Numbered from the stretch's first letter, positions 3,574 to 46,867 are shown. The stretch: 64,000 nt of DNA from Octopus vulgaris (GCA_951406725.2 OX597826.1:10044001-10108000); one strand, 5' to 3'. Made by a program: numbers and translations. The notes: generated by a model from the letters alone, not told the origin.

Positions 3574-3622
3574 CACAAACTGTTACTCAGAGTTTCGCAT
3601 TACCATTCATCAGGTGGTTGTG
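3574..3622 (-). ncRNA. Degenerate hammerhead motif related to the 9510 copy
   Basis: CTGATGA-atggtaatgc-GAAAC-tctga-GTA-acag. Same 3' half as 9510-9548; stems weak. Confidence 0.4.
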
Positions 3623-7237: not shown

Positions 7238-9509
7238 TATATATATGTATATTATGTATAAATGGCAATTTTTGTATGTCTGTCTGTGACCATCTTGCTG
7301 CCCAAACCAGCGAACCAATCTTCAGCAAATTTTGTGTACATGTTAAACTAACATCCAGTTCAATTAGAGGCTAATTGAATTTCAATAAAAATTGACAATG
7401 GACCGACTACGGGGGTGTTGGGCTATTACATGATAAAATGAGAGGGGTGCAAAAGTGTTAGGTTCATGGAAATGTGGCATAATTAGGGTGACTGATATCA
7501 GGGAAGGGGAAGAGAAAGGAAGAGATAGACACACAGGGAATGTGAAAGACAGACAGAAAGAACAACAGTCAGGGACACTTCCATATATATAAAAGAGAGT
7601 TTGTATGTGTATGTGTGTGTGCCTATCTTCCTTATCCATTTGAAAACTGAGTTGCTGATTTGATGTATGGGGTATCAAAAGGTTCAGTAATCTTACAACT
7701 ATCAAATTAACTTTATTTTCATTTACATATTTACATTACAACAATTTACATTATAACCTTTTCTGTAAGTCAACTATTGTAAACATTTTATACTACAACA
7801 ACAACGACAACAACGTCACATTTTCTATATGAGTGTGTACCTTAAAAGACATCCATTTCTCTTTATGATGACGAAATACATTCACTCCCTCTCTCTGTTG
7901 CTGTGTTTGTGTCCCCATAACTTAGCGGTTTGGCAAAAGACACCAATAGAATAAACACTAAGCTTACAAAGAATAAATCCTGGAATCAACGTGTTCGACT
8001 AAAGGTGGTGCTCCAGCATGGCCACAGTCATATACTTTATATAAAGAACTTGACAAGGAGAGCTTTATTTTATTGACCAGAGTGGTCAATAAAATACGAT
8101 TAACCTCAGTGAATTTGAACTCAAAACATAAAAAGATGAAAGTAAACATTAGAAAAGTATATTGTTTGTTGGTTCTACTGATTTTGCCAATCCACTTACG
8201 TTAAGTATAACTTTTTCTTTCTTAAAGTAATTATAAATGTTTGTCCCAGATAATGTGAGTTGAATAGTTCTATAAAAATTGCGTTTTCTAATCACTCACC
8301 TGTGAAATGAGAGTATGACTTATATGACTTATTTTTTAAGGGGTTCAATGAATATTGAGACAAGTAGGTTTGGATGACTATTGAAAGGTCTATTAATGTG
8401 TTTAATCTTTTAATTATCTCACCTGTCTTACTAATACATTAGACTGTGTAGCTCATTATTTGTCCTTGGGTAGCAACTGTCATTTCCTATTTGTTTACCC
8501 TTGGAAAGTGTGAAATATGGCTAATATTTCTTTCAAACTTTGCCTTTGTTACATTTATTCAAACCCTAAAGAATCACTCTCAACACATGGCTATAATGCC
8601 CCCACCACCACCACATTACTCTTGCTCATAATCAGAGATGCATATATTGTCAGCCACTAGGCAACATGCTCAAGTGGTTAAGGTCAAGCTACTGACGAGC
8701 AAATCTGTGTTACAGAGCAGAATATTTGCTATAATGATATTTCTGCTTCAGCAACTCAGTACCGAATCTGTCTGAAATGTAATGGAAAATAGGTCAGTTT
8801 CAAAACATTGACGTCAATGTGACAAAAAGTTTAAAGGGAGTGGTGGTCATTTCCTTTGATTTCCAAATAGAAGCAAATAAAACATAACACTTACTGACCA
8901 AAGACAAAAAAAAAAAAAAGAAGTTACATAGTCTTATTAAACAATATAAAGATAAAATAATATAAATAAACTAAAAATAAACAGGTAAAGTTCCTGAAAT
9001 ATAATTTGGAGACTTTTGTTGCTTCTTTAAATTTTGTTGTTTCTTTTTGTTAATTTAATTAATAAATATACAGGCATATTTATGGTAGACCCTGATTTGA
9101 TTCATTTCGCTTTGAGTTGTGACCAAGTGCAAATTCCAAGATGTGTGGGTCTTGCACTTGAGGCCAATTGAGAAACCCTGAATGAAAACCCATCAAAAGT
9201 TGATGCTGTCTAATTGGTGGCATGAGACAGAGGGAAAAAAGAATAAGGGAGACTCTTATTCTCCATACGTTAAGACTAAATATCTTAATCTCAATGCATG
9301 GAAAAAATGACCTCTCATGTTTCGAGAGCAAAAGACGGAAAATTGCAGTGTAGAAACGAATTCAGAACTTCCTTTTTGAACAGCTTCAGTTTTAGGATTG
9401 AAAGATCTTCATGGCGTATTTACCATCATCATCATCATCACCACCAAAACCACCACCACCATGTATATATATATATATATATATACTTTATTTAAATCAG
9501 CAGCAAAAA

Positions 9510-9548
9510 CTGTCCGATGAACGGCAACGGGAAACTCAGAGTAACAGG
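9510..9548 (+). ncRNA. Degenerate minimal hammerhead motif
   Basis: ctgt-CCGATGA-acg-gcaa-cgg-GAAAC-tcaga-GTA-acag. One core change (U4 to C); lies in a (TA)n-flanked insert. Confidence 0.55.
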
Positions 9549-9709
9549 TCTTGTTGAATTTTCTGCTGCTTTAAATAAAACATATTACTCTACCACTGGT
9601 ATTTGAGTACTCTTTTTTCCACCTTGTTTCACATTTATGTGTTTACTCCGGTATATATATATATACGTATACACACACACACACATATATATATATACGT
9701 ATATATATG

Positions 9710-9744
<35 letters not shown>

Positions 9745-9799
9745 GTATATATGTATGTATGTATGTATATATACATATATATATGTATGTGTGTATTTG

Positions 9800-9849
<50 letters not shown>

Positions 9850-11343
9850 TATAGATTATAAGGTTTATTTGACCTACGTAACCTGTCCAAGCTTGTATTT
9901 AGGTGATTCTTCTCATTGTTTAGAAATTCATTCATGTTGTTTGCATTCAGAGGCCTTCTAGCTATCTCTCTCAGTCAGTGTAGGCAAATGTATAATGTTC
10001 CTCAACAGTTCGTGTCTGAGCAAGTTGTCATAAACTTCTTGGAGCATTTCTATAATGAAAAGATTTTATTCTTGGTAAAGTGAAAATGATAACAAGGCAT
10101 CTAGAATCGGCATGGCTTCATGGCCATTCTGTTCTATTGTTTCAGTACATATAACCATACATACTGAAAAAAGGTAAATGAAAATATTAGTGTATTATGT
10201 CATGTGACTAAGATTAGAGGCAGAGCTTTTGATGCGTGCGTTTAGATGCAGATGTACACACACACACACACACATACACACATGCACATGCATATTCACA
10301 TATGAAAAGTTCCTGGTTTTGGGTAAAAGAAAATATAGGGGGACCAGGTAATTACGGTTTTATTCAACATAATCCCTTTTCAGATTCACACACTTATTGC
10401 AGTGGTCCTTCAGTTTTTCTGAACTCTGCAAAAGAACTCTGATGATGGTTGGGCCTCCAGCCAGGCCTTTTGCAATACCCTTAAAACCAGAAACCTGTAA
10501 GAAAGAGCTGGCCATCACTTGTGAACAGGTATGACTTAGTAGCCTGTACCATGATTTCATCAATTATTTTTGGGGCCTGTGTTGTCATGAGCAGACATAG
10601 TCACTCTTTTGACTGTCTCAGTCTTTGACCCAGCAGCAAGTCCAGGATGTGCCAGCTTGAAGGGGAGAGAGGGAGAGAGAGATAGAGAGAGAGAGAAAGA
10701 GAGAGAGAGAGTGAGAGAGAGCTGTACCAGGGCTTGTCTGTGACTCATTTTCAGGTGAATAAACTGGAACAATGTGAAATGAAGTACCTTGCTCAAGGAC
10801 ACAGTGAAACACTCAGTCCAGAAATTGAACCCATGACGGACACAAATATGTACACAGACACACACGTGGGAGAGAGAGAGAAAGGGGCTCATACATCTCT
10901 TTTGATTCCTTGCCCCTACCACCTCTATAATACCCTCTTATCTATCAGTTATCAGTATCAATCTTATCAGTCTTTTACACTTTCCCCTCATACACACACA
11001 CACACAAGTCCAGACATGGCTATATGGTTGAGAAGGTTGCTGTTCCCAACCAAATAATTTCAGGCCCCACTACTTGGCAGTTTAAGCAACTTCGATTACC
11101 CTAGGTCAATCAAAGTCTTTTGATTGGATTTGGTGGATGGGAACTCAAAGAAGTCTGATGCATGCTTGGTTCCCAAATGTGTTGTCTTGGACCCAGTTTC
11201 ACTGTGCTGCACCTTGGACAGTGGACAAGTAACTTCTATTATAGCCCCAGGGGTCATCAAAACTTTGTGAGTGGATTTAACAACAGATGGAAACTGAAAG
11301 AATCCTATTGTGTATATATATTGTGTGTGTGTGTATCTATTAC

Positions 11344-11400
<57 letters not shown>

Positions 11401-11497
11401 AATCCAAACATGAACAAGCAAGAAAAAAACAACAGCGCGAAGACGTGGAATAAGTACAGTGTTATTGGATGCTCAGGAAAGGAAAGAAAAGAAAGAG

Positions 11498-11534
11498 AAT
11501 TTCATGTTTCGAGCAGAACTCTTCATCAGAAATA
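11498..11534 (-). ncRNA. Degenerate minimal hammerhead motif
   Basis: attt-CTGATGA-agagttctgctc-GAAAC-atg-aaat, within a ~200 bp insert between (TA)n runs. Cleavage triplet is not canonical. Confidence 0.5.
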
Positions 11535-11590
11535 TAGAAAAAGTTCAAAGAAGGGAAGACGGAGAAAAAAATCGCCAACGATGCACAGGT

Positions 11591-11627
<37 letters not shown>

Positions 11628-11629
<2 letters not shown>

Positions 11630-12054
11630 CAATGATAAATCTCAGAGCGAGTTATAAACAGTAGCGGTAACACATCTTGATGCATATTTGCCATTTGAAT
11701 ATGGCTAACCCCTAAGGGTGGATGCTACTGTATCGCTCTGAGATTTATCATTGTTTGATTTCACTTTTTCAATATCAGTGTCAAATCGACACTGGAAAAA
11801 GTATATGTATTTGTGAAGGGATCTGACTTCTCATCGACAACCATGATTGTCACATGCTGATGAAAGGTAAACACCTTGAAACTCTGGTACGTGTGTATCA
11901 TGTGTTGAAGACAGGGAGGATAACTCCCCTTCACAAATACTGAGAGGACACAGATAGTGTGTCTATAGCCAGCTGGAGGAGATATCTTCCTGGGGCTACA
12001 AACTACAGTAGCATCCACCCTTATGGGTTAGCCATATTCAAATGGCAAATATGC

Positions 12055-12058
<4 letters not shown>
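11628..12058 (+). mobile_element. TA-inserted hammerhead element with interleaved inverted repeats
   Basis: Inverted pairs 11628-11650/11733-11755 and 11678-11732/12004-12058; hammerhead at 11851. Confidence 0.6.
11851..11895 (+). ncRNA. Minimal hammerhead ribozyme
   Basis: cacatg-CTGATGA-aaggt-aaac-acctt-GAAA-C-tctg-G-TA-cgtgtg. Stem I has one G:U pair; stem II is 5 bp. Confidence 0.75.
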
Positions 12059-12086
<28 letters not shown>

Positions 12087-12090
<4 letters not shown>

Positions 12091-12718
12091 TTAATTAATA
12101 AGGGTGAGAGAATTAGATACTAATTAATAGTATATTTATTCAACACCAAGTGGCCTAGTGCTACGAGAAACCTGGATTATTATAATATTTTATAACATAT
12201 TATAATATTTTTACAAAATAAATATAAGAGAGTGGTCACTATATTGCTCACTCTAGCACCAGTTAATCCAAAAGGTTTCAACCACGAAAATACATGTTTC
12301 CCATGAAAGCCAGTACGACTGTTAGCTCACACGGACAGGGCAAATAAAAAATAACAAAAATACAGATTATTTTGGGACAATTGTTTCGCTATTAATGAAT
12401 TAAATGTAATATTACTTACAAAAAAATCCATTTGTAGCTCGTCAGCCAAGACTATCTGGATGAAATCCACTCAATCACACGCCAGATTTTACCATAACGA
12501 TAAATACGCGTGTGGTTCAATTGATTACATCCGACGTTATAATTCAAATGCCCCAACCAACAGCGCGCCAAACTTTCACGGAAAACAAATACAGCATTTA
12601 GAAATAAATGCAGCATAATTATAATTAATTAATAAGGGTGAGAGAATTAGATACTAATTAATAGTATATTTATTCAACACCAAGTGGCCTAGTGCTACGA
12701 GAAACCTGGATTATTATA
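12087..12718 (-). mobile_element. Non-autonomous Penelope-like/retrozyme-like element with 98 bp terminal direct repeats
   Basis: 12087-12184 is identical to 12621-12718. Internal hammerhead, (TA)n flanks, no ORF. Confidence 0.65.
12372..12449 (-). ncRNA. Minimal type I hammerhead ribozyme (intact core)
   Basis: ttgg-CTGACGA-gcta[loop]tagc-GAAA-C-AATT-G-TC-ccaa. Palindromic ACAATTGT stem III, GUC triplet. Confidence 0.8.
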
Positions 12719-14230
12719 TATATGGCTGTAAATGAGCATGATCAGCATACAAGTGATGTTCATTTCCAGTCTTCCACAAAAAACATGCCTGGTCAAGGAG
12801 AAATATTATTTTGCTTGCAAAGCCAGTGAGTATTGGTGTGAGGAAGGACATCCAGCTGTTGGAAATTTGTCTCAATGAATTTCTGTCTAACCCATGCAAG
12901 CATGGAAAAGTGGATGTTAAAATGATGATGATGTGACAATGATAAGTGTGTGTGTGTGTGTGTATGAGAGAGAGAAGGAGGGAGAGAGGGAAGGAGAGCG
13001 AGAGATTGTGTGTGTCAACATCATACAGTCAGTGACATTTTGTTTCCAGTCTTCTGTGAAGACATGTCCAGCCAGGATGAAATGATATCATGTTGCTTGG
13101 AAACAAGTAAGGGTTGACAATAAGAAAGGCATCGGACCATAGAAAATAAATTAAACTCCAATGAATTGTGTGGGATTCATGCAAGCATAGGAAAATGGAT
13201 GTTAAAATGATGAAAATGAAGATGAGGGTATATATAGGATGGCCTTCTGAGTGTATCCATGTTTCCATCTACCAAATCCACTCACAAGGGTTGGCCCTGG
13301 ACTATGGTGGATGACTGTTGCCTTAGTTGCTGTGGATTGGATATACAATAGGGTGTTGAAAAGTTCCTGGTTTTAAGGGTACCGCAAAATACATGGTTGG
13401 TGGCCCAACCTTTCGAGTTCTTTTACAGGGTTTAAAGAAACTGAAGGACCACTGCAATAAGTGTGTGAATCTGAGAGGGGGAATATATGTTGAATAGAAT
13501 CATGATTAACTGATCCTCCTGTATTTTCTTTCACCTAAAGGCAGAAACTAAAGTCATTTGACTGTGGTCATGCCAGAGCACCGCCTTTAGTCGAGCAAAT
13601 CAACCCCAGGACTTATTCTTTGTAAGTCTAGTACTTATTCTATCGGTCTCTTTTGCCGAACCACTAAGTTACAGGGATGTAAACACACCAGCATCGGTTA
13701 TCAAGCGATGTTGTGGGGCAAACACAGACACACAAACATATACACATACACACATATATATATACATATATACGACAGGCTTCTTTCAGTTTCTGTCCAC
13801 CAAATCCACCCACAAGGCTTTGGTCAGCCCGAGGCTTATAGTAGAAGACACATGCCCAAGGTGCCACGCAGTGGGAATGAACCCGGAACCATGTGGTTGG
13901 TAAGCAAGCTACTTACCACACAGCCACTCTTGCGCATGTATATATGTATGTTTGTATGTATGTGTACATATGTATAAGTGTGAAGACCAGTCCCTCTAGT
14001 GGTGAAAAGCACTTGTGGTGGTGTCACATGAAAGTACCTGTGCAGTGTCGTATAGAAGCACGGACCATACCCTGTAAAGTGGTTGGTGTTAGGAAGGGTG
14101 TCCAGGAGGAGCATGCAAAATCAGACTGGAATCTGGTGTAGTTCCCCAGCTTGCCAGCTCTGGTCAAACTGTCCAACCCATGCCAGTATGGACAATGTAC
14201 ATTAAATGATGTTGATAATGATGTGTGTAT

Positions 14231-14281
<51 letters not shown>

Positions 14282-14868
14282 TATATATATGTATAAATGT
14301 GTCTGTATATATATGTGTGTGTGTGTGTGTATGAACCTCGCCTGTGCAAGTGCCAGGTAAAGAGCATTGAATCCACTCTGCAGAATGGTCAGTGTTAGGA
14401 AGGGTATCCAATTGTAAAAACCCTGCCAAAACAGACATAGTAACATGGAGTAGTCTTCTACATGGCCAGCTCCTGTCAACTGTCCTGTCCATGCATGCAT
14501 GGAAGATGGACATTAAATGATGATGATGATGATGATATATATATATATATATATATACATAGTACAAAGTAAGATAGGGGTTATGAGGGTAACCCACTAT
14601 GGGATATATATATTTGACTTTTTATTAAAATTTTATGTATTGATTAAGTCTTTCCTTGTTTGTTTTGCAAAATAGTGGTTTTGTCTCTAATAATATTATA
14701 TGTATATATATATAATTATAAATAAGGGCAAAAGAAAAAATTTCTATGCCAAGATGCTGAGAAATAGACTTTAAATCGTCAGTCACCACATACGATATAC
14801 ATCACTATAAATACACATCATGTTGAATCGAGGAAAGCAAGCTAACAGAATTTTTAAAAAATGCATTA

Positions 14869-14927
14869 TCTCTGTATCAAATGATTTTGGGATTAATCCA
14901 ACGGATTTTTCCACTCATCAGTAGAGA
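14869..14927 (-). ncRNA. Decayed hammerhead motif
   Basis: tctcta-CTGATGA-g...c-AAAA (GAAA probably lost by CpG decay)-tcatttga-TA-cagaga, inside a TA-flanked insert. Confidence 0.35.
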
Positions 14928-15114
14928 ATATGATAAGAAGTCAATGAAATACTTACAAGCACCCATGAAAAAAAAGCAGAAGCGAGAGTCATGTGTACAC
15001 ATAAGTACCCCAAATATATCTAAATATGAATTCCGTAGCAAGCCTTACTACGGAATTCATATTTAGATATATTTGAGGAAATTTTTTGAAAAAATTTTAT
15101 CCTATATTAGAAGT

Positions 15115-15177
<63 letters not shown>

Positions 15178-15307
15178 TTCAGCAAAAATTTAGATTCAAA
15201 TGAATATGGTACTTAATTTAGATGCACCAGAATTCTGTATGGTGTTATCCATAAAAATCTGTGGGGTGATTATAATCAAAATAAGCAACAAGAATGACTC
15301 CGGTAAT

Positions 15308-15384
15308 TTGGTACGATCGTTTCGTACTACATCATTTTATTAAGTACTACAACAGATTTAAGATGCTGAGTACTCATCAGCCAA
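15308..15384 (-). ncRNA. Minimal type I hammerhead ribozyme (intact core)
   Basis: ttgg-CTGATGA-gtact[loop]agtac-GAAA-C-GATC-G-TA-ccaa. Palindrome ACGATCGT, GUA triplet. Confidence 0.8.
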
Positions 15385-15550
15385 TTATAGAGGTTTTCCA
15401 TTAATACAAAAATTTTCAAATCAAGTGGCAACATTATAGAGAAGGTAGATATATAGACAAAGATGTGGATTTAAATTTTAAGAACATATGATGTAGTGGA
15501 CAAGGTATAGATAATGGTTATTACATATTTTTCTTTTATGAGAGTAAATT

Positions 15551-15657
15551 TGGCCTACAGCTGTTTCCTCTAATCATTCTAGGTATGTTACTGATAGGTT
15601 TACTCAGTTGGTCTATTGATCACCTGAGAAAAATGAATGCTGCTTTCGTCAGAGCCA
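15551..15657 (-). ncRNA. Second hammerhead-like motif in the 15.2-15.9 kb element
   Basis: tggct-CTGACGA...GAAA-C-AGCT-G-TA-ggcca. Palindrome ACAGCTGT; stem II poorly paired. Confidence 0.5.
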
Positions 15658-15923
15658 TTTCTGGTTGTAACAAAGCAAACCGTTATTTATACTTTGTTTT
15701 ATCTATCACTCTGTGTAAAAACCAGTTTGACTGGAGCTTAATCATGGATCTACAATATAGAAACTGTGATGAACCATAACCTTGGACCCTGGCATAAAAA
15801 TACTTGAAGTTCTTCAGTAATCTAAACATAACTGTTAGCCTGGTTTGCCAACAGAGAGCTTATGAAGTGTTTTGCCCGGATTGATAATCCCTCACTATTA
15901 GCTCTGTTATATATGTATATATA

Positions 15924-17358
15924 TCATCATCATCATCATCATCATCATTTAACGTCCGCTTTCCATGCTAGCATGGTTTGGACGGTTCAACTGGGGTCTG
16001 GCAAGCCCGAAGGCTGCACCAGGCCAGTCAGATATGGCAGTGTTTCTACAGCTGGATGCCCTTCCTAACGCCAACCACTCCGAGAGTGTAGTGGGTGATT
16101 TTATGTGCCACCGACACAGGTGCCAGACGAGGCTGGCAAACGGCCACGCTCGGATGGTGTTTTTTATGTGCCACCGACACAGGTGCCAGATGAGGCTGGC
16201 CGGATGGTGTTTTTATGTGCCACCGACACAGGTGCCAGATGAGGCTGGCAAACGGCCACGATCGGATGGTGCTTGTTACGTGCCCACAGCACGGAGGCCA
16301 GTCGATGCGGTACTGGCTACGGCCACGTTCGGATGGTTTTCTTGTGTGCCACGTGCCACCGGCACTGGTACCACAAAGATACAAATTCCATTGATGTTCA
16401 TCTATTTTGATTTGTTTTGATTTTCACTTGCCTCAACAGGTCTTCACAAGTGTCACAAGAAGGAAGGTATGCACAGGTGGACTGACTACGTCCCAGGTAG
16501 GGGCCATGGGTTATGGCCTGACTAGTCTTGCCGGGTCTTCGGATGGTGTTTTTATGTGCCACCGACACAGGTGCTAGATGAGGCTGGCGAACGGCCATGA
16601 TCGGATGGTGTTTGTCATGTGCCCACCGCACTGACTACAGCACTGATGGATTTCTTTGTGTGCCACAGGCACTGGATTCACTTGCCTCAACCACAAGATA
16701 CAAATTCCATTGATGTTCATCTATTTTGTCTATTTTGATTTGATTTGATTTGATTTTCACTTGCCTCAACCGGTCTTCACAAGTGTCACAAGAAGGAAGG
16801 TATGCACAGATGGACTGACTAGTCTTGCCGGGTCTTCGGAAGGTGTTTTTATGTGCCACCGACACAGGTGCCAGATGAGGCTGGCGAACGGCCATGATCG
16901 GATGGTGTTTGTTACGTGCCCACAGCACGGAGGCCGGTCGATGCGGAACTGGCTACGGCCACGTTCGGATGGTTCTCTTGTGTGCCACCGGCACTGGTAC
17001 CACAAAGATACAGATTCCATTGATGTTCATCTATTTTGATTTGTTTTGATTTTGATTTTCACTTGCCTCAACAGGTCTTCACAAGTGTCACAAGAAGGAA
17101 GGTATGCACAGGTGGACTGACTACGTCCCAGGTAGGGGCCATGGGTTATGGCCTGACTAGTCTTGCCGGGTCTTCGGATGGTGTTTTTATGTGCCACCGA
17201 CACAGGTGCTAGATGAGGCTGGCGAACGGCCACGATCGGATGGTGTTTGTCATGTGCACACAGCATGGAGGCCAGTCGATGCGGTACTGGCTACGGCCAC
17301 TTTCGGATGGTTTTCTCTTGTGTGCCACCGGCACTGGTACCACAAAGATACAAATTCC
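15924..17358 (-). mobile_element. Internally duplicated RTE 3' UTR array
   Basis: (CAT)n tail followed by repeated cggatggtgtttttatgtgccaccgacacaggtgccagatgaggctggc modules and larger duplications. Shorter tails at 4328, 21575, 37380, 49130, 51363, 52520, 56190 and 59455. Confidence 0.75.
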
Positions 17359-17394
<36 letters not shown>

Positions 17395-17396
17395 AT

Positions 17397-17570
17397 GTAT
17401 ATGAATAAATGAAAGAATGGAGTCGAACGAAGATGTTAACAAAATTCCTTTACTCTCGACATATGTTTCGAAGACAGAATGAAAACATGCTGTCTTCGAA
17501 ACATATGTCGAGAGTAAAGGAATTTTGTTAACATCTTCGTTCGACTCCATTCTTTCATTTATTCATATAC
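17397..17570. repeat. Perfect ~81 bp inverted repeat with 12 nt spacer
   Basis: Arms 17397-17477 and 17490-17570; contains GAAACATATGTC. Confidence 0.9.
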
Positions 17571-19329
17571 AACACACAAATTTCTGCACATGAACCCGGA
17601 GTTTCTACCCTTGACAGGTCGCTTCAACCGTGTTTTCTGACGTGAATTTGCTACCCAGGTTTCGGTTAAACGAATTTTCCATGCTGACGATAAACATAGG
17701 ATAATTCATTCACCTGCTTAAATATATATGTATGTATGTATAATTTTATCCCCTTCATACATATGTTGATGATTTATAGTATCAGTTACAATATTATGTA
17801 GAAATCCTGGAGGCTTTATCCTCACTCAGTGGCGTTGCATGTAACAAAACCATTCACAAGACTTTACCATGAGTTGAGGTAAAGGTGGAAGACACTTCCT
17901 TATTCAAGGAATAATATAATAGAATTGAATGTGGTTCCTCACTGCTTAACCATTCAGCCATGCAAGCTTCTATATGCATGGATACGCACACAAACATTAG
18001 CACAGAAGTGAGTGAGAGAGAGAGAGAAGGGGAGAGATGGAGAGAGAGAGTGAGGGGGAGTGAGAGAGGAAGAGAGATGGGTAGAGAGAGAGGTGGGGGA
18101 GAAAGAATAAAAGACAAATAGCTGAAAGAATTCCAGGATTCTGTTAAATTTCTTCCAACCACTTTAAGTTTTGTCAAATTGTCACCAGATTATTTTAAAA
18201 ATCTGTATGCTTGTTTTTGTTTATGACCCCCACTACTACTTGACAACCAATGTTGGTTTGTTTACATTCCTGCGAATCGGCAACAGTTACTGATGGAATA
18301 TGCAGCAGGCTTAAAATTAAAAAAAAAAAAAAAGTACTGAGGTTGATTCATTCTACTCAAAAAATTTTCAAGACGTTGCTCCAGCATGGCAACTATCCCA
18401 ATACAAATTTTAAAAAATAAAAAAAAAAGTTTCAAGCAGAAAAATTCAACCTATTCTACTTTACAAGCGAAGCTGTGTGGTCAGAAGTTTGCTTCTCGAT
18501 CCGATGGTTTTTGAGTACAGTGTCACTGCATAACATCGTGGGTATGTCTTCTTCACAGCCCCAGTCCGTGAGTGGAGTTGGTTTTGTGGAAGCTCAAAGA
18601 AGCCCGTCGTATATATATATATATATCACGTGACCAACAGATGTTGCTACACATCGCTGGTCACAATGCGCTTCGCATTGTTTTAGCCTTCGAATGACGC
18701 CACCCCGCTGGCTAAGTGAAGCGAGCAGGCCAACAGAAGAAAGAGTGGGAGAAAGAGCGGTGAAAGAGTACAGCAGGGATCGCCACCCCCTGCCGGAGCT
18801 TTTAGGTGTTTTCGCTCAATAAACACTCACAACGAAACCGCGATCCTGCGACCGCAAGTCCGTTGCCCTTACCACTAGGCCATTGCGCCTCCACCGTATA
18901 TATCGCTAAGTTACAGGGACGTAAACAAACCAAGCAGTGACAAGCACACACAAATATGTATATATATACGACGCTAATGTATATATATACATATATACAT
19001 ATTTGTGTGTGCTTGTCACTGCTTGGTTTGTTTACGTCCCTGTAACTTAGCGATTCAGCAAAAGACACCGATCGAATAGTTATTGTGCCAATTTTTTGAA
19101 AGAAAAACCAAACCCAAAGTACCGGATCAATTCATTCGACTAAAACCCCTCCAAGGCGATGCCCCCCACCCCACCCAGCATTGTCCGCAGTCCATCGACT
19201 GAAACAAGTACCCGATACTCCCCGCCGTCCCCTTCCTACCACCGTCTCCTTCACCACCACCACCACCACCACCGTCTCCTTCACCACCACCACCACCACC
19301 GCCGCCGCCGTAAACTAATTTATTCTCCT

Positions 19330-26043: not shown

Positions 26044-26150
26044 AAAAATATGGAACGCTTCATGAATTTGCATGTCATCCTTGCGCTGTGGCCATGCTAA
26101 TATTCTCTGTATCATTCCAATTTTAGAATATGTACTGCCGTAGCTAGTAC
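26044..26150 (-). pseudogene. U6: U6 snRNA retro-pseudogene, full length (107 nt)
   Basis: Minus strand reads GTACTAGCTACGGCAGTACATATTCTAAAATTGGAATGATACAGAGAATATTAGCATGGCCACAGCGCAAGGATGACATGCAAATTCATGAAGCGTTCCATATTTTT. ACAGAGA box, AGC triad and oligo-T are present. Three CpG-type decays and internal stem-loop substitutions; upstream flank is a MITE, not a PSE/TATA promoter. Confidence 0.93.
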
Positions 26151-29502: not shown

Positions 29503-29544
29503 ATTATATATATATATATATATATAAACAGAGGTGCAGCACGG

Positions 29545-29602
29545 AATTTTGTCAGTGAACAGGTTGCAGTCTCAAAGCACCGAAAAAATATTTTGGCAAA
29601 TT
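29545..29602 (+). ncRNA. Hammerhead-like variant with G3-C8 core
   Basis: aattttgtca-GTGAACA-ggttgc-agtctcaaa-gcacc-GAAA-aaatattt-tggcaaatt. A related copy lies at 46802-46857 on the minus strand. Confidence 0.45.
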
Positions 29603-29735
29603 AAATTAAAATGAAGTGAATCTAACGGTTTGTGTGTGTTTCTTAAATGGCTTATAAACACCTTCCATGCTGCAATTGTTTTCGTTCCAGCACATGATCT
29701 CAGGTCAAGTCACTTGCTATGCAAGTACATCTCCG

Positions 29736-29777
<42 letters not shown>

Positions 29778-37147: not shown

Positions 37148-37233
37148 TTGGTACGATCGTTTCGTACTACATCATTTTATTAAATGTTGTAAGTATTACA
37201 ACAGATTTAAGATGCTGAGTACTCATCAGCCAA
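37148..37233 (-). ncRNA. Minimal hammerhead ribozyme, second copy of the 15308 family
   Basis: Core and stems are identical to 15308-15384; differences fall in the stem II loop. Lies in a ~240 bp copy (37112-37350) directly after a (TA)n run. Confidence 0.8.
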
Positions 37234-41815: not shown

Positions 41816-44242
41816 TGTATGCATATATGACGGACATCTTTCAGTTTCTGCCTATGAAATCCACTTACAAGGTTTTGGTTGGCCCAGGGTTACAGTTGAA
41901 GTCACTTGTCCAAGGTGTGTCACAATGAGATTGAACTCTAAACCATGTGGTTAGGAAGTAAACTTCTTAACCACATACCTATGCCTGTGACCTTAATCTA
42001 AAAGTTCATGGGTATGGAACTTATATTTGTTTTGATTTGAAGGCTTAAACATTTTTCTGTTTCCAAATTTTATCAGTGGACAGTTTACAATTAGCATGCA
42101 GACCAAATTTCACATGTATACAAAGGGTTCTCCGGCCCCTGTTGTAGAAGTTCCCTCATAAACAAGAAAGTTCACATCTTGTGTGTTGGATGTAGATTGC
42201 TTGCGCAATAAATAATGCTGAATTCAGAGACAGTAATATTAGTTTCAATTTTTGGCACAACGCCAGCAACTTTGGAGGAAGGGGTAAGTCAATTACATTG
42301 ACCCCAGTGCTCAACTGGTCCTTATTTTATTGACCCTGAAAGGATGAAAGGCAAAGTTGACCTTGGTGGAATTTGAACAGTCATGGTTGTGTGTAAGAAG
42401 CTTGCTTCCCAACCACATGATTCCAGGTTCAGTCTCACTGCATGGCACCTTGGGCAAATGTCTTCTACTATAGCCTCGGGTCAGCCAAAGCTTGGTGAGT
42501 GGATTTGGTAGACAGAACCTGAAAGAAGCCCCATCATGTGTATATATGTGTTTGTGTGTCTGCATTTGTCCCCACATCACCACTTGACAACTGGTGTTGG
42601 TGTGTTTACATCCCTGTAACTTAGTGGTTCAGCAAAAGAGACCAATAGGATTAGTACTAGGCTTAAAAAATAAATCCTGGGGTTGATTTGTTCGACTAAC
42701 ACCCTTCAAGGCAATGCTCCAGCATGGCTGCAGTGAAATGACTGAAAGAAATAAAGGTATAAAAAGAATGGACGGAATACTGCTAAGCATGTTGCCCGGT
42801 ATAATAATGGTTCTGGCAGCTTGCTGTCTTTTCAGAGACATTAATATTATAATTTTCAACAAGTTGGCAAACCGACAGAATCATTACTGTGCTGGACGAA
42901 ATGCTTAGTGGCATTTTGTTTGTCTTTATGTTCTGAGTTCAAATTCCACTGAGGTTGACACAGCTTTTCATCCTCTCGGGGGTTGATAAAATAAGTACCA
43001 GTTAATCACTGGGGTTGATGTAATCGTCTTACCCCTCTCCCGAAATTACTGGCCTTTTAGCAAAATTTGAAACCAATATAATGCTCAGCTTTTAACTCTT
43101 TCCCTGTGTTTCACATGTGTTACACACAATATATTTCTCTGGCTTCCATGCATCATCATACAATATATCTAATTTTTTTCAATTACCAAAGTATCTTGGG
43201 GACTTATGAAATGAAAGTGTAGCATATCTGATATCCTCACTGTTTGAGAAACACAATAAGAATGATCTCGTTTGAGATTACGGCCATCTTTGGCTGGTTT
43301 GACCCTGTTGTGTCCACTGATCTGATTGGTTGGCATCTAGCGCGGTTTGTCTCCCTACTTATTTCGTGCCAGAGTATAAAGGCAACCAATCACGGCCTTT
43401 GGATAAGGCCTGCTTGATTTGAGCCATCTAAACCCCTTAAATAGGCTAGATTTTCATTATTCTTCGTCTTTCGACTCCAGACCTTTTTAAGGCCTAGTCA
43501 CTGACCACAGAGCTACTCAGCCATGTTCCAGTTACAGCGACAGACGACCAGTCAGCCAGCTCTGCTATTGCTCCAGCTATGAAGACGCTATTATATACCA
43601 GCAACAAACAGAACATTTTCTATCTCCGCCGCCGTCATCACCATCATCGTACTCCAACTTTACGCCATCTCCACCATTCGTCGCCATTACCACTGCCAAC
43701 TTCAAATATGTACACACCAACTCCTTACGTATGGCCGTATAATCCTACAAAAGCTTTATATTAGTCAGAAAAAATAAAACAAGTGCTAATTAAAGTCGAT
43801 AACAAATATTGACACTTAAGATAAACTTACAAAAATGCTTTGGAAATGCAAACGATTAATGTCACTTTTCTTTTTCATGTAGCTCACATATAAAATAGAA
43901 CTTATATGTTGCAAGAAAACATAGACAGCAGAGTCTGTTAGTAAGTTTGGTCTTTTGATTTAAAGTTCAGTGTGAGCTAGGATGAAACTTTAACCCATTT
44001 GGACAAACCCACCTGAGATTGATTGCCCCTGGTTCAATGATGCTAAATTCTTTATTTAGATTGATCTGAATTAAAACTGTTTATCAAAACTTCAAGCTAC
44101 TTTATGTTCCAATACCAGCTTAATTTTAACAAAACTGATTTACAAAATTATTCATGATTTTGAAATTAATTTAAATAGAAGTAGTATATTTCAACAGAAA
44201 CATAGTAACAAAATAGTTAACTGGGCCACATTAAACTATTTC

Positions 44243-44685
44243 AAACTTAAAATCTTCAAAGCCATAGTCGAACCAGTTCTACTATATGGCTCAGAAACCT
44301 GGACATTATCAAAGAAGCTCGCAAGGTGGTTGGATGGAACTTACACTCACCTCCTTATGAGAGCTCAAAATCTCTCGTGGAAGTGTCATCCAACCAAAGT
44401 GCAAATATATGGGAAACTACTACCTGTATCATCTCTTGTGAAAGGTAGAAGAGTCCAGTTTGCTGGACATTGTTGTAGAGCTGAAAAAGAGGTAATTTTT
44501 ACTCTTCTCCTCTGGAAGCCATCTGCTCACGATACCAGAGGGCGCACACTCTCCTACCCTGATGTAATCTCCAGGGATACAGGCATCCAGCAACAGGACC
44601 TCCGTAATGCTATGGTGGCATGTGAAGTCTGGCGTAGCATGGTAAATTCCATTGTCTCGACCACGGTCGAACAATGACGATGATG
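44243..44685 (+). mobile_element. RTE-clade LINE 3' fragment (different family)
   Basis: KLKIFKAIVEPVLLYGSETWTL...FAGHC...WRSMV, stop at 44675-44677, (GAT)n tail. Confidence 0.85.
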
Positions 44686-46662: not shown

Positions 46663-46665
<3 letters not shown>

Positions 46666-46867
46666 CGGAGATGTACTTGCATAGCAAGTGACCTGATCTG
46701 AGATCGTGTGCTGGAACGAAAATAATTGCAGCGTGGAAGGTGTTTATAAACCATTTAAGAAACACACAAAAACTGTTAGATTCACTTCAACATTTAAATT
46801 TAATTTGTCAAAATATTTTTGGCACTTTGAGACAGTGACCTGTTCACTGACAAAATTCTGTGCTGGA
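46663..46867 (-). mobile_element. TA-inserted repeat; inverted copy of 29527-29738
   Basis: Shared ttacggagatgtacttgcatagcaagtgac...ctgacaaaatt sequence; both copies abut (TA)n. Confidence 0.7.

Follow-up and report, generated by a model that had tools for sequence, protein, structure and literature searches.

A 64,000-nucleotide (nt) stretch of the 2.8-Gb genome of Octopus vulgaris (GCA_951406725.2 OX597826.1:10044001-10108000), referred to as the window and numbered from its first letter, contains a cluster of inserts that carry hammerhead ribozyme motifs and are flanked by TA repeats. The reading that we consider probable is that the 8-kb cluster (9487..17720) consists of eight mobile repeats that have accumulated, nested and side by side, in TA microsatellites, and that one of them, the non-coding family E, spreads through the copying of a circular RNA by the proteins of Penelope-like elements (PLEs). 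The eight families comprise the tips of Hydra-type PLEs (F and H), retrozymes (E, C and probably D) and short solo inserts (A, B and G), and all of them were likely inserted by Penelope-type reverse transcriptase (RT)-endonuclease proteins. The evidence that carries this reading is the anatomy of the E insertions across the genome and its likeness to that of a young autonomous element, family K.

Non-coding tandem units

In the window, family E occupies positions 12087..12718 on the minus strand, with its fixed 3' end at 12087, and holds 1.2 copies of a 534-nt unit, which therefore appear as a 98-bp direct repeat. Its hammerhead (12372..12449, minus strand), recognized by the descriptor given below, combines the core CTGACGA, a 51-nt branched stem II, GAA and the palindrome ACAATTGT, and the predicted cut in this copy falls between 12376 and 12375. 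The unit forms head-to-tail arrays at ~99% identity with up to 12 full units per arm, and a 23-mer placed over the ribozyme has 2130 exact copies in the genome, with 0 for the control. Family C (11629..12058, plus strand; inverted arm 11629-11732, main arm 11733-12058) is built of a 352-nt tandem unit whose arms end at unit positions 306 and 349-352, and its hammerhead core at 11857-11889 on the plus strand matches the strict descriptor. Both families consist of short head-to-tail units with a type I hammerhead in each, and no open reading frame (ORF) of at least 170 amino acids (aa) was found inside their units in loci L001-L098 and the window; on these sequence features we class E and C as retrozymes. 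Folding of the units as circles gave z-scores of -6.9 for E, -8.6 for C and -9.4 for a third retrozyme, with values of ~0 for the ends of F, H and K. The junction sequence of an E or C circle is identical to the genomic tandem junction. The E unit is covered in pieces by contigs from four runs only guessed to be RNA, a result that has no bearing on expression or circularity.

Family D (14713..15117, minus strand; main arm 14713-15040, short inverted arm 15046-15117) is older, with copies at 82-89% identity and degenerate tandems of at most about two units in 11 loci, and is probably a retrozyme-type tandem unit of greater age. Comparison with the family form GAAATCGWTCGAT indicates that its hammerhead (14870-14926, minus strand) is dead in the window copy. 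One randomly chosen tile (L169:2100-4770) contains a 359-nt retrozyme with a compact hammerhead and an ACCGGT palindrome, arranged as a two-armed array whose 3' end resembles that of family C and in which two unit variants alternate irregularly.

Anatomy of the E insertions

We examined family E at 71 loci. Of these, 38 were top matches, and the other 33, which serve as a positional sample, come from the first 100 sites on C1 that match a sequence pattern. All but one of the 117 arms at these loci end at unit position ~406 or at 529-534, nearly all of them beside TA repeats. The ends point outward and the arms meet head to head, with one arm per site at 45 of the 46 two-armed loci, including 16 of 16 among the 33 positional loci. 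The 5' ends are scattered: a single one of the 117 lies at the predicted cut (244-248), and ten that were scored at position 1 are partly a unit-boundary artefact. The arms run through the cut site for up to 12 units, and none of the 154 crossings checked carries a scar. Arm lengths in the positional sample (n=49; range 66-6812 nt, mean 1.08 kb) follow an exponential distribution (Kolmogorov-Smirnov p=0.64).

The two arms of a locus tend to share their sequence variants. Of the 45 loci that were informative, 41 had arms of concordant haplotype (the positional sample giving 13 of 15) versus 330 of 1980 cross pairs, six locus-private variants are present in both arms, and 31 haplotypes occur among 50 E loci. 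Minority variants within an array were confined to a single unit in 121 cases versus 13 present in several units, and their density did not track array size (rho 0.03). Arrays with recurrent variants are found at L099, L100, L102, L104, L105, L111, L113 and L114, and two arrays are mosaic.

Two generalizations about these arrays were rejected. Microhomology is not universal at the E junctions, since 8 of the 16 resolved junctions have extra nucleotides (5 of 21 could not be resolved), and a periodicity expected of multimeric circles was set aside as unproven, the period-3 and period-5 patterns breaking down in further units.

Substitutions in the arrays show a further asymmetry. Among 57 array-wide E variants, with polarity assigned by majority only, A>G is more frequent than T>C on the sense strand (16 to 7; p 0.01 against composition), and G-U takes the place of a predicted A-U pair in 13 of the array-wide A>G changes. 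The corresponding counts for unit-private variants are 10 and 11, and the contrast with the array-wide set is not significant (Fisher p 0.22). The bias is consistent with adenosine-to-inosine (A-to-I) editing or with selection on the RNA fold.

Hammerhead motifs and ribozyme structure

Motifs were identified with a strict type I descriptor (C[TC]GANGA plus GAAAC..GTH, stems I and II of at least 3 bp, palindrome optional), and shuffled sequences served as controls. The window contains four matches (11857 on the plus strand; 12445, 15380 and 37229 on the minus strand) versus a mean of 0.01 per shuffle in 100 dinucleotide shuffles, and a genome sample of 60 evenly spaced 10-kb tiles (600 kb) contains 18 versus 0 in each of 10 shuffles. 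Seven of these 18 are units of one tandem array, and the independent insertions number 12. Helix III is palindromic in 17 of the 18 tile matches, though the descriptor does not demand a palindrome, and (TA)6 lies within 150 nt downstream of 9 of the 10 palindromic tile matches outside the array versus 11% of random positions. The window families number 8 insertions in 8 kb versus 17 in 600 kb, with a maximum of 2 per tile, a comparison that is biased because the families were picked from this very window. Rfam reported no hammerhead at gathering score in the window, nor at E<=10 within 9000-18200.

An initial annotation of this DNA, made from the sequence alone, had proposed a community of minimal hammerhead motifs in inserts bounded by (TA)n. 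The observation is real and far above chance, and the annotation was confirmed in part. Its seven motifs in 8 kb reduce to three that pass the strict descriptor (11851, 12372 and 15308) and four that are defective: the site at 15551 (family G) has intact cores and the ACAGCTGT palindrome with a stem II that does not close, the core at 9510 (family A) reads CCGATGA with stem II closed by an A.G mismatch, and those at 11498 (family B) and 14869 (family D) are dead, mutated copies of families in which other members have intact motifs. Among the additional sites that it listed, the one at 37148, a second copy of family F, passes, and that at 3574 is a decayed relative of the 9510 motif (75% over 56 nt). 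No hammerhead was found at 29545 or 46802, which belong to one repeat family with a core-like 7-mer on the antisense strand only. The inserts are bounded by (TA)n and mutually unrelated, as proposed, and sort into eight high-copy families; the three best motifs have the different 8-nt palindromes described, with palindromicity kept. The term minimal is wrong for these three, in which 50-78 nt separate the two halves of the core. The minimal type (no or rudimentary helix III, compact stem II) is represented by family B only, and E, F, G and H, with 8-nt palindromes and stem II regions of 50-78 nt, lie outside it.

Stem covariation across copies, which the annotation had named as a further check, was also found. 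Altogether, 101 distinct motifs from 276 sequences form 20 clusters, 15 of them with a palindromic helix III. For 14 long-stem-II motifs, 92.7% of cells are paired, a level that none of 500 shuffles reached, and 12 of 13 pairs show two-sided change; the inner two palindrome pairs, which were not selected for, have 27 of 28 cells paired and 9 two-sided changes. Modelling predicts that the 8-nt palindromes pair as dimers, with helices of -6 to -11 kcal/mol, and hardly at all as hairpins, and these modelled energies are consistent with the dimer cleavage described for PLE ribozymes in the parts of the reports considered here (PMC4209133, PMC6765202). When the E ribozyme plus 30 nt was aligned to 12 autonomous 3' ends, only one, the Hydra-type end L164, gave a notable result (z 7.7).

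Autonomous Hydra-type elements

Longer copies elsewhere in the genome indicate, from their sequence, that F and H are 5'-truncated tips of autonomous PLEs and not non-autonomous elements. The F copy at L026 runs upstream into an endonuclease ORF, and at L154 and L166 F sequence at 88-89% identity lies downstream of an RT-endonuclease ORF. Several H copies identified with tblastn extend to an endonuclease ORF that ends ~300 bp before the ribozyme, one of which (L237) continues into the start of the next ORF, and an endonuclease search of the genome returned 19,642 candidates. The initial annotation had described all of the elements as non-autonomous, which holds for the ORF-less E and C and fails for F and H; it had also anticipated relatives with RT and GIY-YIG-type domains, which occur upstream of F and H in other copies. 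Its proposals of Penelope dependence, (TA)n targeting and a retrozyme-like nature are judged right, E and C being ORF-less tandem units.

The coding elements share a single ORF in which RT is followed by a C-terminal GIY-YIG-type endonuclease, as in K (717 aa), L151 (947 aa), L154 and the H loci. RWK and DKT motifs are present in the K and L151 translations, and a CxCX5C linker together with the endonuclease motifs CxxC and CxH in K, L151 and the F-linked ORFs; the F and H parents and K also carry a hammerhead in a terminal repeat and insert into (TA)n. In the H ORF (L230-L243), CxxC and CxH were seen and no CxCX5C was found in the translations, yet H inserts into (TA)n. Young F-related subfamilies exist, with pairs at 98.8-99.8% identity, and F-related subfamilies are longer (ORF of up to 947 aa plus a 3' region of ~1.5 kb) than the 2.58-kb unit of K.

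Family K (L244+L245, L246-L263), found beside an E array and absent from the window, encodes 717 aa in an intact frame and is young, all 150 of 150 scored matches lying at 98-100% identity. It forms multi-unit, two-armed arrays of up to four units plus an inverted arm, with units 99.4-100% identical, and 12 of 15 two-armed loci, all hand-picked, use one each of two ends ~75 nt apart. One public gene model (P0031), annotated as an ankyrin-repeat protein, also includes a piece of Hydra-type RT that matches at 68% across 38% of the query and is likely an annotation chimera or an exonised fragment.

Proposed mechanism and alternatives

These data support a PLE-driven process in which one RNA, either a circle or an uncut multimer, is copied from both DNA ends. 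In the route that we propose, transcripts of E arrays would be cleaved by the hammerhead acting as a dimer through its 8-nt palindrome, and the cleaved RNA would be ligated into a self-paired 534-nt circle. A PLE protein, likely working as a dimer, would cleave a (TA)n tract on both strands, and each of the resulting DNA ends would prime complementary DNA (cDNA) at one of two fixed positions within the same RNA, unit positions ~406 and 534. The RT would then travel round the circle until it dissociates, which would happen at random, and the two cDNAs would be linked in head-to-head orientation. As every insertion would leave TA on both flanks, new elements would land beside older ones. The use of the two arm sites matches the behaviour of PLEs, which have two RT starts and a 'tail' on one side only, and a monomer circle best accounts for read-through of the cut over many units, constant fall-off and the repeated fixation of private variants across whole arrays.

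Several points weigh against this reading. The E data do not separate a circle from an uncut linear multimer, and in vitro uncut RNA is the main substrate of a PLE and ribozyme mutants still insert (PMC11167929, in the part considered); cleavage is reported for 1 of 9 retrozyme dimers in the portion of the preprint covered (bioRxiv 10.64898/2026.07.22.740005). The circle fold is not exclusive to retrozymes, as 2 of 20 random windows also fold with z below -6, and stems I and II in the covariation set were mostly imposed by the descriptor. Arms are discordant at 4 of 45 E loci, and 13 variants recur in non-adjacent units, with a period of 3 in three of the arrays; duplication at a later stage, templates of mixed origin or errors of assembly therefore also act. 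Half of the 16 resolved E junctions overlap by 1-3 nt and the other half have 2-27 extra nt. No partner enzyme for E was found among the autonomous families tested: similarity between E and K does not exceed that of chance words, and the E start sites match none of K, M and H (best p 0.03, uncorrected). Pfam gave no relevant match to the PLE proteins, so the naming of their domains relies on motifs and on a resemblance to Hydra proteins judged by eye, and the putative Hydra-type assignment likewise comes from protein motifs. Of the 71 E loci, 38 are top matches or hand-picked, as are all K loci. A likeness between K and E in the words TGACYAC / TCTYACC, noted by eye, was rejected as not significant.

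The alternative closest to these objections is that PLE enzymes insert, at both ends, an uncut linear multimer transcribed from existing arrays, with the hammerhead a passenger or late-acting and no circle involved. The in vitro preference for uncut RNA agrees with it, arms copied from homogeneous source arrays would in any case be alike in haplotype, certain variants are found again in several units and in one case (L111) in both arms, and the monomer hammerhead fold lies 4.6 kcal/mol above the minimum-energy fold. We nevertheless hold it unlikely, given that 25 of the 57 array-wide variants are confined to a single locus and that haplotypes are so numerous, so that a linear route needs repeated monomer bottlenecks followed by re-multimerisation; furthermore, only 4 of 119 unit-private variants recur in two loci, and the E unit folds as a closed, strongly self-paired circle.

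A second possibility places the growth of the arrays after insertion, PLE enzymes delivering one or two units that are later expanded by local unequal crossover in the manner of a satellite. Internal expansion of this kind would preserve both the fixed ends and the shared haplotype, is a route discussed by Li et al. (bioRxiv 10.64898/2026.07.22.740005), and agrees with the 13 multi-unit minority variants, some of them at period 3. Set against it are the excess of single-unit variants and their independence of array size, the single exponential that fits lengths from 66 to 6812 nt, the same arrays made by the autonomous 2.58-kb K from nearly identical units, and the short tandems of the older family D, and these make it improbable to a degree that leaves it little weight. 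Movement of E and C by a non-PLE enzyme, such as that of a long interspersed nuclear element (LINE) or another RT, or by a DNA-level mechanism, with the likeness to PLEs convergent, is the account that we find hardest to credit. It can draw on the failure to find a partner at the sequence level and on LINE-like and mariner-like ORF remnants present in the loci; it has to contend with two fixed internal 3' ends, one per arm, with (TA)n targets and a pattern the same as that of K, with ends at which no poly(A) tail was seen, and with an E ribozyme related to Hydra-type ends.

Other inserts and features of the window

The remaining families complete the pile-up. Family A (9486..9651, plus strand) is a solo insert of fixed length, ~150 bp, that has a short 5' arm in inverted orientation; the start lies within 3 nt of one place in 10 of 11 fetched copies, and its hammerhead (9510-9547, plus strand) has the 9-nt near-palindrome ACTCAGAGT of the Hydra-clade type. 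A decayed A-like core with a broken stem I lies at 3580..3613 on the minus strand. Family B (11396..11592, minus strand), a solo insert of ~200 bp and fixed length, has approximately one start in 11 of 11 fetched copies and accounts for 10 insertions in 600 kb, and its minimal hammerhead GAAACGTT is mutated to GAAACATG in the window copy. A and B, in which the end is fixed as well as the start, may represent mini-elements, or else short cDNAs derived from the transcript start of a parent element. Family G (15498..15908) is an old two-armed insert (minus arm ~15498-15676, plus arm ~15678-15908) with intact hammerhead cores at 15556-15652 on the minus strand. Parents of A, B and G were not found.

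The F insert (15176..15497, minus strand), a 5'-truncated 3' tip whose longer copies carry the ORF, has the hammerhead core ACGATCGT at 15312-15380 on the minus strand, with 9 nt deleted from its stem II insert, and a second, intact F hammerhead lies outside the cluster at 37152..37229 on the same strand. Family H (17396..17722, plus strand) is a two-armed tip, again with longer copies that carry the ORF, and of the hammerhead each arm retains no more than the 3' half, GAAACATATGTC, at 17498 on the plus strand and at 17469 on the minus strand. B, C and E stand side by side, as do D, F and G, with only TA tracts within B-C-E and D-F; a (TA)n target tract spans 11347..11395 and further TA tracts separate neighbouring inserts at 11593-11628, 12060-12089 and 15117-15175. 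At first look, the families returned 621 (A), 3349 (B), 2346 (C), 1963 (D), 1129 (E), 2657 (F), 1401 (G) and 2661 (H) matches, which are candidates and not copy numbers.

Four other features were noted. Family I (29527-29737 and 46664-46865) is a TA-flanked repeat of ~210 bp with two fixed 3' ends and inverted arms, and no hammerhead was found on its sense strand. A GC-richer degenerate tandem repeat at 16062-17345 (periods 49, 112 and ~300 bp) is unrelated to the ribozyme inserts. A copy resembling U6 small nuclear RNA (26044-26150, minus strand; 98 bits, several substitutions) could be a gene or a pseudogene, and a 200-aa open stretch at 44075-44674 on the plus strand is by eye like the C-terminal part of a LINE-type RT.

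Relation to known systems and implications

The components of this system are already known, namely PLE hammerheads, TA-targeted Hydra elements and retrozymes, and the comparisons that follow refer to the portions of the published accounts considered here. The novelty suggested by the initial annotation is reduced in that Hydra-clade PLEs with hammerheads and a preference for (TA)n, including an octopus family (Hydra-1_Obim; Craig et al. 2021), are already catalogued (PMC8557442). That clade has the RWK, DKT, CxCX5C, CxxC and CxH motifs, is generally <3 kb in length, and has a linker, CxCX5C, proposed to guide microsatellite targeting (PMC8557442). The elements described here agree with it in the single ORF with RT followed by endonuclease, the motif set, the terminal-repeat hammerhead and (TA)n insertion, and in the inverted truncated copy with a one-sided tail; A and K share a 9-nt near-palindrome with the three Hydra hammerhead rows compared (PMC8557442). 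Unlike those three rows, F, H, E and their relatives have a branched stem II of 45-78 nt and perfect 8-nt palindromes. The two ends are spaced 46-230 nt apart here versus 30-40 in the Hydra clade (PMC8557442), and, unlike that clade, F-related ORFs reach 947 aa and H appears to be without CxCX5C.

Minimal PLE hammerheads (Cervera and de la Pena 2014, PMC4209133) share with these families a palindromic helix III implying dimer cleavage, massive numbers of dispersed truncated copies and opposite-strand pairs 100-700 bp apart, and family B fits the type. Unlike them, E, F, G and H carry long inserts in stem II, with dimer helices of 8 bp, and C is near-canonical. Poseidon PAc, studied in vitro (Frangieh et al. 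2024, PMC11167929), likewise has two internal RT starts that define a tail and AT-rich targets, and shares with our proposal the cutting and extension of both DNA strands and a predicted dimer; it differs in belonging to another clade, in its autonomous RNA and in a ribozyme that is dispensable for insertion. Metazoan non-LTR (long terminal repeat) retrozymes (Cervera and de la Pena 2020, PMC7229834; Li, Clavereau and Pollet 2026, bioRxiv 10.64898/2026.07.22.740005) resemble E and C as ORF-less, self-paired tandem units with a type I hammerhead that occur beside PLEs, and mobilisation by PLEs and circular templates have been proposed for them in both accounts. The E unit of 534 nt exceeds the 170-400 nt given in one (PMC7229834) and falls within the 51-972 bp given in the other (bioRxiv 10.64898/2026.07.22.740005). 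Two-armed insertions with two fixed starts, (TA)n targeting and haplotype sharing between arms, as seen for E, are not reported in the portions considered. More broadly, the literature covered contains no account of two-armed retrozyme insertions, of arm haplotype sharing or of octopus retrozymes, which supplements, Repbase and Dfam could hold, and none of a long-stem-II, 8-nt-palindrome hammerhead subclass, which supplements or repeat databases may hold. The two-armed PLE footprint of the non-coding E, the sharing of arm haplotypes and the long-stem-II subclass may therefore be new, and the last, missed by Rfam, is a structural variant of interest.

The mover of animal retrozymes and the role of a circle as template have so far been argued from co-occurrence and sequence relatedness and are open, Li et al. 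leaving the mechanism open and discussing local expansion (bioRxiv 10.64898/2026.07.22.740005). In the octopus, the footprint of the young non-coding units is that of a young and intact PLE of the same genome, with starts mapped to a few bases, and a published in vitro PLE assay is therefore directly applicable. This feature makes an open mechanistic question testable, and K is a ready enzyme for in vitro work. We give about an even chance to the wider view that this is a live host-parasite system, in which Hydra-clade proteins capture small ribozyme-bearing circles and copy one of them from both ends of a double-strand (TA)n break, using rolling-circle reverse transcription with two fixed starts, and with the A-to-G bias written back. 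If true, the arrays would be a direct genomic record of circular RNA as an intermediate in PLE and retrozyme transposition, and RNA editing, or selection on the fold of the circle, would be inherited in the genome through the A-to-G bias.

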